Part shown: positions 62,188 through 63,268 of the stretch, piece by piece
How positions within the stretch are numbered: the stretch's first letter is position 1
Layout of the letters: every line of letters begins with the position of its first letter
Source: Escherichia coli
Lineage (GTDB): Bacteria > Pseudomonadota > Gammaproteobacteria > Enterobacterales > Enterobacteriaceae
Strand: one strand, 5' to 3'
Assembly: GCF_050920415.1 (NCBI RefSeq)
Contig: NZ_CP169309.1
DNA: 64,000 nucleotides
Made by a program: the position numbers and the translations under genes
The notes under the pieces: model-generated
Told to the model about the DNA's origin: nothing
What the model saw: the letters and a program-made list of their open reading frames with translations, nothing else
Database searches by the model: none

Positions 62188-62414
62188 TGGCTGATGCAAT
62201 GGATCTTGTACAGCAGCGCGTTGAAGAAGAACGCCAGCGCCATATCCGTGCTGCCCGTGCCAAAACGCCGGGCGTGTCCCGCGTGCTTTGCATTGAGTGT
62301 GAAGCGCCAATTCCGCCAGCACGCCGCCGCGCCATTCCAGGTGTGCAGCTTTGCATTACCTGTCAGGAAATCGCAGAACTGAAAGGCAAACATTACAACG
62401 GAGGTGCTGTATGA
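62187..62414 (+). CDS. DksA/TraR-family C4 zinc-finger protein
   Basis: 75 aa; CIECEAPIPPARRRAIPGVQLCITC. Confidence 0.6.
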   Translation: MADAMDLVQQRVEEERQRHIRAARAKTPGVSRVLCIECEAPIPPARRRAIPGVQLCITCQEIAELKGKHYNGGAV

Positions 62415-63268
62415 GCACCATCCTGAAATGGGCGGGAAATAAAACCGCCATTATGTCCGAACTGAAAAAACACCTTCCTGCTGGCCCGCGACTGGTTGAA
62501 CCTTTCGCGGGTTCCTGTGCTGTGATGATGGAGACGGATTACCCCAGCTATCTGGTTGCGGATATTAATCCTGATTTAATCAACCTCTATAAAAAGGTTG
62601 CCGCTGATTGTGAATCGTTTATATCTCGCGCCAGAGTTTTATTTGAGATCGCAAACAGGGAGGTGGCTTATTACAACATAAGGCAGGAGTTTAATTACTC
62701 CACTGAAATTACTGATTTCATGAAAGCGGTATATTTCCTGTATCTCAATCGTCACGGTTACCGTGGTTTATGTCGCTATAACAAGAGCGGGCATTTCAAC
62801 ATTCCCTACGGTAATTATAAAAATCCGTATTTCCCTGAAAAAGAAATTCGCGCATTTGCAGAAAAAGCCCAGCGGGCAACGTTTATCTGCGCCAGCTTTG
62901 ATGAAACGCTGGCGATGTTGAAGGCGGGGGATGTGGTGTATTGCGATCCGCCGTATGACGGCACGTTTTCCGGTTATCACACTGACGGCTTCACTGAAGA
63001 TGACCAGTATCACCTGGCATCCGTTCTTGAACATCGGTCATCAGAAGGACATCCGGTCATTGTTTCTAACAGTGACACATCCCTGATCCGTTCGCTGTAT
63101 CGCAATTTTACTCACCACTACATCAAGGCAAAACGCAACATCGGTGTGGCAGCTGGCGAGGGTAAATCAGCAACAGAAATCATTGCTGTTTCCGGGCCGC
63201 GCTGCTGGGTGGGATTTGATTATTCGCGTGGCGTGGACAGTTCTGCCGTGTACGGAGTACGTGCATGA
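62411..63268 (+). CDS. phage DNA adenine methyltransferase (Dam family)
   Basis: Start [11 protein letters not shown]; motifs EPFAGS and DPPY. Confidence 0.8.

Follow-up and report, generated by a model that had tools for sequence, protein, structure and literature searches.

The right-hand part of the window (the whole stretch of 64,000 nucleotides of Escherichia coli DNA analysed here) raises the question of why a prophage should carry an adenine methylase gene with no restriction gene beside it. A sequence-only reading of this DNA had placed an orphan methylase gene of the Dam type in the early operon of a prophage, and had suggested that its product could either modify methylation-dependent processes of the host or protect phage DNA. 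The ORF lies at exactly the coordinates given, and both motifs named, EPFAGS and DPPY, can be read directly from the translation. As described below, the first of the two suggested functions is unlikely, while it is plausible that the enzyme protects or maintains phage DNA in the lytic phase. What that reading overlooked is that the gene is common and has already been described.

A Dam-family gene in the early operon of a 186-like prophage

The dam ORF is intact, running from an ATG at 62411 through 285 codons to a TGA stop at 63266-63268, and its product is identical to RefSeq WP_000104156.1, which is annotated as 'DNA adenine methylase'. A longer form, initiated at a TTG at 62351, was considered and rejected as a wrong start because RefSeq gives the 858-bp form for the identical sequence and because divergent phage homologues all share the same 11-residue N-terminus.

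That the product is Dam-like, as had been proposed, is confirmed by matches far beyond chance. It aligns with positions 1-253 of the 253 positions of Pfam PF02086 (D12-class N6-adenine methyltransferase; E = 1.2e-76, 258.2 bits, cut-off 22), and it scores 320.9 bits against the NCBIfam 'dam' subfamily TIGR00571, for which the cut-off is 114.85. With phmmer, residues 4-263 aligned at ~50% identity (E = 5e-73) with the crystal structures of E. coli Dam, hereafter EcoDam (2G1P, 4GOL and others), and the product also matched PHROG 56, 'DNA methyltransferase'. Its score against the host Dam equivalog (NF008152 / PRK10904), however, is 286.2 bits, under the cut-off of 441. We therefore regard the gene as a phage paralogue or xenologue rather than as the chromosomal dam or a displaced host gene; EcoDam is encoded in the host's own dam operon, whereas the prophage gene lies in a lytic operon. 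The order of the motifs is colinear with that of EcoDam (alpha-group), but motif I reads F-A-G-S-C where EcoDam has F-V-G-A-G, with the last glycine replaced. The FAGSC form is kept in the Dams of Fels-2, Klebsiella phage Gegevirus and a Yersinia phage, as well as in the protein of retron Ec67.

The claim that the gene is prophage-encoded is borne out by its surroundings: attL, int, cI, cII, fil and gene A of a 186-like phage lie around it (Table 1). That the host DNA belongs to E. coli is shown by matches to the right-hand 24 kb of the window in 5,425 of 5,426 complete genomes. The arrangement is that of a 186-like (Peduoviridae) prophage, with int and cI on one strand, the genes from apl, cII and fil to A divergent from them, and an attachment site at a tRNA-like gene. 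Since the gene order matches that of coliphage 186 and dam is on the early lytic strand, its assignment to the early operon also stands. In the annotation of phage 186, the early lytic operon is transcribed from pR, a promoter repressed by CI. The prophage is inserted at ssrA and extends past the right end of the window, but a relative in E. coli strain WEC, with 2 base differences over the shared 6,718 bp, is complete; it ends at ssrA and holds the remaining P2-type virion genes. In strain WEC this near-identical prophage is found in tandem with another integrase-bearing island.

Table 1. Positions of the prophage features in the window.
Feature	Position	Strand	Evidence
attL, 46-bp exact copy of the ssrA (tmRNA) 3' end, left prophage boundary	57105-57150	-	sequence match
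gapS1, GapS1-family anti-phage defence gene (NCBIfam NF047931, 428 bits), between attL and int	57283-58803	-	
Tyrosine integrase (int)	58816-59829	-	ORF, Pfam, RefSeq
cI repressor (Phage_CI_repr + Phage_CI_C)	59831-60463	-	ORF, Pfam, RefSeq
pR-like sigma-70 promoter TTGACG-17-TAGTAT, cI/apl divergent region	60476-60504	+	consensus scan; position analogous to 186 pR
apl-like gene	60583-60831	+	ORF, Pfam, RefSeq
cII (Phage_CP76)	60864-61373	+	ORF, Pfam, RefSeq
fil (Phage_186_Fil)	61381-61581	+	ORF, Pfam, RefSeq
DUF5347 gene	61545-61886	+	ORF, Pfam, RefSeq
DUF2732 gene	61954-62187	+	ORF, Pfam, RefSeq
TraR/DksA C4 zinc-finger gene; stop overlaps dam start (ATGA)	62187-62414	+	ORF, Pfam, PHROG
Ribosome-binding site GGAGG (Shine-Dalgarno), 6 nt before dam ATG	62400-62404	+	read from sequence
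dam, 285-aa orphan Dam-family N6-adenine DNA methyltransferase (predicted GATC)	62411-63268	+	ORF, profile and homology matches
Motif I region EPFAGS, aa 30-35 (AdoMet-binding FxGxG-type, here F-A-G-S-C)	62498-62515	+	sequence, EcoDam alignment
DNA-recognition hairpin, aa 117-136 (= EcoDam 119-138)	62759-62818	+	2G1P alignment; residue roles PMC4417163
Catalytic motif IV DPPY, aa 179-182, aligned with EcoDam DPPY	62945-62956	+	sequence, alignment
Replication endonuclease gene A, 5' part (cut by the window end); ATG overlaps dam stop (ATGA)	63265-64000	+	sequence, RefSeq

On the plus strand between cI and gene A, the pR-like site was the only promoter-like sequence found by a crude consensus scan, which a weak internal promoter could escape. 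We found no convincing terminator between this site and dam, and nothing convincing that resembled tR1 in the 61887-61947 gap.

Several smaller features of the region may be recorded here. The spacer of the pR-like promoter contains a GATC (60494), which falls in one of two direct repeats, TATCAAATATTGGATC and TATCAAATATTGAATC (window 60476-60530); these repeats resemble operator or Apl-type sites. The codons for DPPY in dam, GATCCGCCGTAT, also include a GATC, so that the gene carries its own predicted target within its active-site codons. The N-terminal 245 aa of gpA (63265-64000) gave no Pfam or NCBIfam match; gpA is 804 aa long in the WEC relative, longer than the A protein of 186 (~694 aa), and in phage records with a gpA N-terminus at 77% identity or more, dam is almost always alongside. 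Elsewhere in the window, in a cluster of Ser/Arg tRNA genes (12813-13180), the minus-strand tRNA-Arg(tcg) calls made by ARAGORN overlap plus-strand tRNA-Arg(acg) genes and are probably mirror-image artefacts.

Proposed role in lytic growth

The reading that we favour, at a probability of about 0.75, is that the gene encodes a phage-borne orphan Dam that methylates GATC, is carried as cargo of the lytic operon, is silent in the lysogen and maintains GATC methylation of the amplified phage DNA. We infer each of its elements, namely GATC specificity, lytic-only expression and a benefit to the phage; for lytic-only expression, we draw on the strand of the gene, the overlaps with its neighbours, the single promoter-like site and the annotation of 186. 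In a lysogen, the CI repressor should hold the early operon, and hence dam, silent. After induction or infection, the pR-type promoter would transcribe dam, and the overlapping chain of ORFs for the zinc finger, Dam and gpA would be translated, so that the methylase should appear together with the replication initiator. Dam would then methylate the GATC adenine at N6, with AdoMet as the donor, and its likely job would be to keep the fast-amplified phage DNA fully methylated at GATC while the small Dam pool of the host is limiting. Progeny DNA would thereby be shielded from methylation-sensitive GATC-cutting restriction (MboI/DpnII-type) in the next host. Alternatively, or in addition, the phage DNA would not be handled as hemimethylated or unmethylated by MutH or SeqA. 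Previous work describes the supply of endogenous Dam as limiting when DNA is present at high copy number, and classes phage Dams as anti-restriction functions (preprint 10.1101/2020.06.22.160242).

The complete WEC prophage has 110 GATC sites in 33.1 kb, or 3.3 per kb (observed/expected 0.77), while the host part of the window has 3.5 per kb (observed/expected 0.71) and phage values range from 3.3 to 3.6 per kb. We saw no avoidance, enrichment or clustering of GATC in the prophage, including near its regulatory and replication regions, and no 200-bp window of the prophage holds more than 3 sites, a density not above random. The phages usually infect E. coli, Klebsiella and Salmonella, which are all Dam+, and methylation-sensitive GATC-cutting restriction systems are not known to be common in these hosts.

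Alternatively, the gene could act in lysogenic conversion, with prophage Dam expressed in the lysogen and altering methylation-dependent processes of the host, such as phase variation, mismatch repair and replication timing. The amount of Dam has consequences in E. coli and Salmonella, and a prophage copy would raise gene dosage if transcribed. Overexpressed Dam is known to methylate targets that are otherwise under-methylated and to trigger retron-Sen2 (preprint 10.1101/2020.06.22.160242), and the GATC inside the pR-like promoter makes some feedback conceivable. However, dam lies on the lytic strand behind a CI-controlled promoter of the pR type, with no internal promoter-like site found, and the base contacts of the enzyme predict the same specificity as that of the host Dam. 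The GATC sites that it would methylate in the host are, moreover, ~99.9% methylated already, as measured for the chromosome in E. coli strains with several prophage Dam homologues (PMC6602927). A different prophage Dam homologue, M.EcoMIV of ST131, was transcriptionally silent by RT-PCR (PMC4659465), which argues in the same direction by analogy from another methylase. Because of the CI-controlled operon, the host-like specificity, the near-complete methylation of host GATC sites and the silence of M.EcoMIV, a lysogen-specific change in the host methylome is unlikely, and the suggestion in the sequence-only reading that host processes might be altered does not hold up well; as a full account of why the phage carries dam, we consider lysogenic conversion very improbable. 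When we looked for M.EcoMIV (EC958_1101) at 1.04-1.09 Mb of EC958, no methylase was encoded in this interval, which covers host genes and the terminal part of a Mu-like prophage. For work on methylomes or on dam mutants, there is a practical caveat: many strains have, besides the host Dam, another GATC methylase that is usually silent but could be activated by prophage induction.

The position of dam directly before gene A raises another explanation. Phage 186 has three non-essential genes, orf82-orf84, in the slot that separates its DksA-like zinc-finger gene from A (4891-6748). Their content differs from that seen here, with an exonuclease-like gene, DUF5405 and the PAPS-reductase-like orf84 but no methylase; the likeness lies in a slot for non-essential cargo whose last gene is translationally linked to A. 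According to the 186 annotation, translation of A appears to need translation through the end of orf84, and the homologue of the zinc-finger gene is also annotated as non-essential. Given that the 186 slot holds unrelated non-essential genes, we regard the site of dam as a slot in which the cargo varies, and coupling between the translation of dam and that of the replication initiator gene is probable. It might then be argued that dam serves mainly as a translated leader that enables expression of gene A, its methylase activity being secondary or dispensable. The ATGA overlap of the dam stop with the A start, the location of the ribosome-binding site of A (GGAG, 63254-63257) within dam, the dependence of A on an unrelated upstream gene in 186 and the fact that the cargo of the slot differs between phages would all fit with this explanation. 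Yet the whole protein is under strong purifying selection: among three phage Dams (those of the prophage, Fels-2 and Gegevirus, at 72% identity), dN/dS was 0.11-0.13 (~0.12), with dS near saturation, and the catalytic and DNA-contact residues are retained across these 72%-identical homologues. The low dN/dS and the retained residues indicate selection on enzyme function and not just on an open frame, and we conclude from these comparisons that the prophage Dam should be a functional enzyme. In addition, a hairpin at the start of A (CCGGCG-N7-CGCCGG, 63364-63382), considered as a counterpart of the intragenic terminator tM1 of 186, was rejected: its folding is no better than that of shuffles (z = -0.06), and the T-run is not conserved in Fels-2. 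Thus, a role as leader is, if anything, slightly less probable than lysogenic conversion, and we retain the maintenance of phage DNA methylation as the likely role of dam.

Predicted target and residues particular to the phage enzymes

EcoDam and the prophage Dam share the DPPY motif, the recognition hairpin and the residues that contact the bases of GATC. In the alignment, K9, Y119, L122, R124, P134 and Y138 of EcoDam correspond to K6, Y117, L120, R122, P132 and Y136 of the prophage enzyme. In EcoDam, K9 and Y138 are involved in recognition of the first base pair, Y119 intercalates between the inner A:T pairs, L122 and P134 make base contacts, and R124, the strongest discriminator, contacts the guanine of the fourth base pair (Gua4) (PMC4417163). 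Because these base-contact residues are conserved, and because a 98%-identical protein is named after the Ec67 Dam, the prophage Dam is very probably GATC-specific, like the Dam of the host.

There are, nevertheless, differences from EcoDam, including N120 to R118, R137 to N135, motif I and the C-terminal tail. The first three are kept across the phage clade (Fels-2 and Klebsiella phage Gegevirus), position 135 being either N or H, and kinetics or flank preference could therefore differ from those of the host enzyme. One could go further and suppose that the substrate of the enzyme is not double-stranded GATC but, for instance, single-stranded DNA or a relaxed site of the ATC type. In support of this, the clade-specific changes fall at N120, R137 and motif I, and recognition of the first base pair is the least stringent in the Dam family and is not universally conserved (PMC4417163). 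On the other hand, every base-specific contact residue of EcoDam is conserved, the score against the dam subfamily is nearly three times the cut-off, and the 98%-identical Ec67 enzyme, which has the identical substitutions, has been reported as a Dam methylase. A changed specificity or substrate is therefore highly improbable.

A further possibility, which we regard as speculative and unlikely, is that the substitutions of the phage clade (N120 to R, R137 to N/H, and FAGSC) give the enzyme kinetics unlike those of host Dam, and that an obligatory translational coupling to gpA may tie methylation capacity to the initiation of replication. For example, methylation by the prophage Dam may be faster and less sensitive to flanking sequence, and may include GATC sites that the host Dam leaves unmethylated. 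If this were true, induction of this very common prophage, which about a quarter of E. coli genomes contain, would for a short time change the methylation of protected or regulatory GATC sites, or would trigger or evade defences that sense methylation, for instance those with GATC-bearing retron msDNA.

Orphan status and known relatives

The neighbours of dam are the zinc-finger gene and gene A, and there is no adjacent restriction or endonuclease gene. We found no restriction endonuclease paired with dam in the prophage part of the window, as a type II restriction-modification system would have, and the annotation of the complete WEC prophage lists no restriction enzyme. Of the PADLOC models, oMTase (orphan methyltransferase) was the best, at 368 bits, followed by MTase_II at 288 bits. 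The prophage dam is an orphan methyltransferase, as had been claimed.

The only nuclease-family gene in the visible part of the prophage is gapS1, 3.6 kb from dam and on the opposite strand. GapS1 is a single-protein defence of the PD-(D/E)xK family that responds to phage capsid protein by inducing dormancy (preprint 10.1101/2023.03.28.534373). The gapS1 allele is present in 14 of 5,426 complete E. coli genomes vs 1,238 for dam, from which it follows that the two are not co-inherited and are independent cargo; on these counts, together with the known capsid trigger, we rejected GapS1 as a hidden partner nuclease. That dam should supply the modification activity of a restriction-modification system or of another nuclease defence, with its nuclease elsewhere in the prophage (GapS1, or a gene beyond the end of the window), is barely credible: the presence of GapS1 in the same prophage, a DUF4145 protein in the cargo region of the WEC prophage and the second rank of MTase_II are outweighed by the co-occurrence counts, the response of GapS1 to capsid protein rather than to methylation state, the zinc-finger gene and gene A that flank dam in all inspected relatives, the better score of oMTase and the lack of an annotated restriction endonuclease in the complete relative. 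The gapS1 gene sits in a P2-type cargo hotspot, and PADLOC v2.0 has no model for GapS1.

At a threshold of at least 90% DNA identity, the 1,238 genomes with dam amount to ~23% of those complete E. coli genomes, and the gene almost always has the same two flanking genes. It also occurs in 56 phage records, including those of Klebsiella phages KP12 and 4LV2017, Escherichia phage Cartapus, Salmonella phages and Fels-2. The order zinc finger, dam, A is kept in Fels-2, Klebsiella phage Gegevirus, KP12, Cartapus and ~1,240 E. coli records. The Dams of Fels-2 (STM2730), Gegevirus, KP12, 4LV2017, Cartapus and Salmonella RE2010 share both this position, with overlapping gene ends, and the clade-specific residues, although amino-acid identity to other Peduoviridae Dams varies from 72% (Fels-2, Gegevirus) to 99.6% (Kp4845-2), and the C-terminal ~20 residues vary.

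Clustering at 90% identity places the protein in a set of 4,038 members that bears the name 'DNA adenine methylase'. Among these, a protein named 'retron EC67 DNA adenine methylase' is identical at 279 of 285 positions (98%); it has the same length of 285 aa and the same clade-specific substitutions, and only six residues differ. The record of Fels-2 annotates STM2730 by similarity to it. The Ec67 ORF was reportedly shown by Hsu et al. in 1990 to confer Dam methylation. The element that hosts retron Ec67 is a 34-kb 186-like prophage with int, cI, cII, zinc finger and dam, and the same layout is found in Klebsiella (PMC7826664). As cited in that paper, the title of Hsu, Inouye & Inouye 1990 (PNAS 87:9454) speaks of 'Dam methylase functions' for the retron Ec67 element, and Dodd & Egan 1996 is cited there as locating the retron in a 186-related prophage. 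In contrast to Ec67, no retron reverse transcriptase was seen in the window or in the complete WEC prophage. The prophage dam is therefore a known and ordinary gene, and its identification is the correct annotation of a gene already described: RefSeq labels the exact protein as a DNA adenine methylase, and the description of the 98%-identical enzyme dates back 35 years.

Orphan GATC-type methylases with no partner endonuclease are likewise found in unrelated types of phage, as in the case of T4 Dam, P1 Dam and M.EcoVT2Dam / M.EcoGV of Stx phages. These are only distant kin (~25% identity to T4 Dam), and some have special roles, such as that of P1 Dam in P1 pac cleavage. An annotation note in the Fels-2 record states that prophage DuoHS of E. 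coli HS carries the same Dam; the literature on DuoHS gave no data on this protein. Finally, in Yersinia phage vB_YenM_42.18 (NC_070913.1), an intact but unannotated Dam-like ORF of ~276 aa (~3465-4300), 53% identical to the prophage Dam and with both FAGSC and DPPY, lies directly upstream of gpA, where the record gives only two small hypothetical ORFs and an overlapping gpA start.
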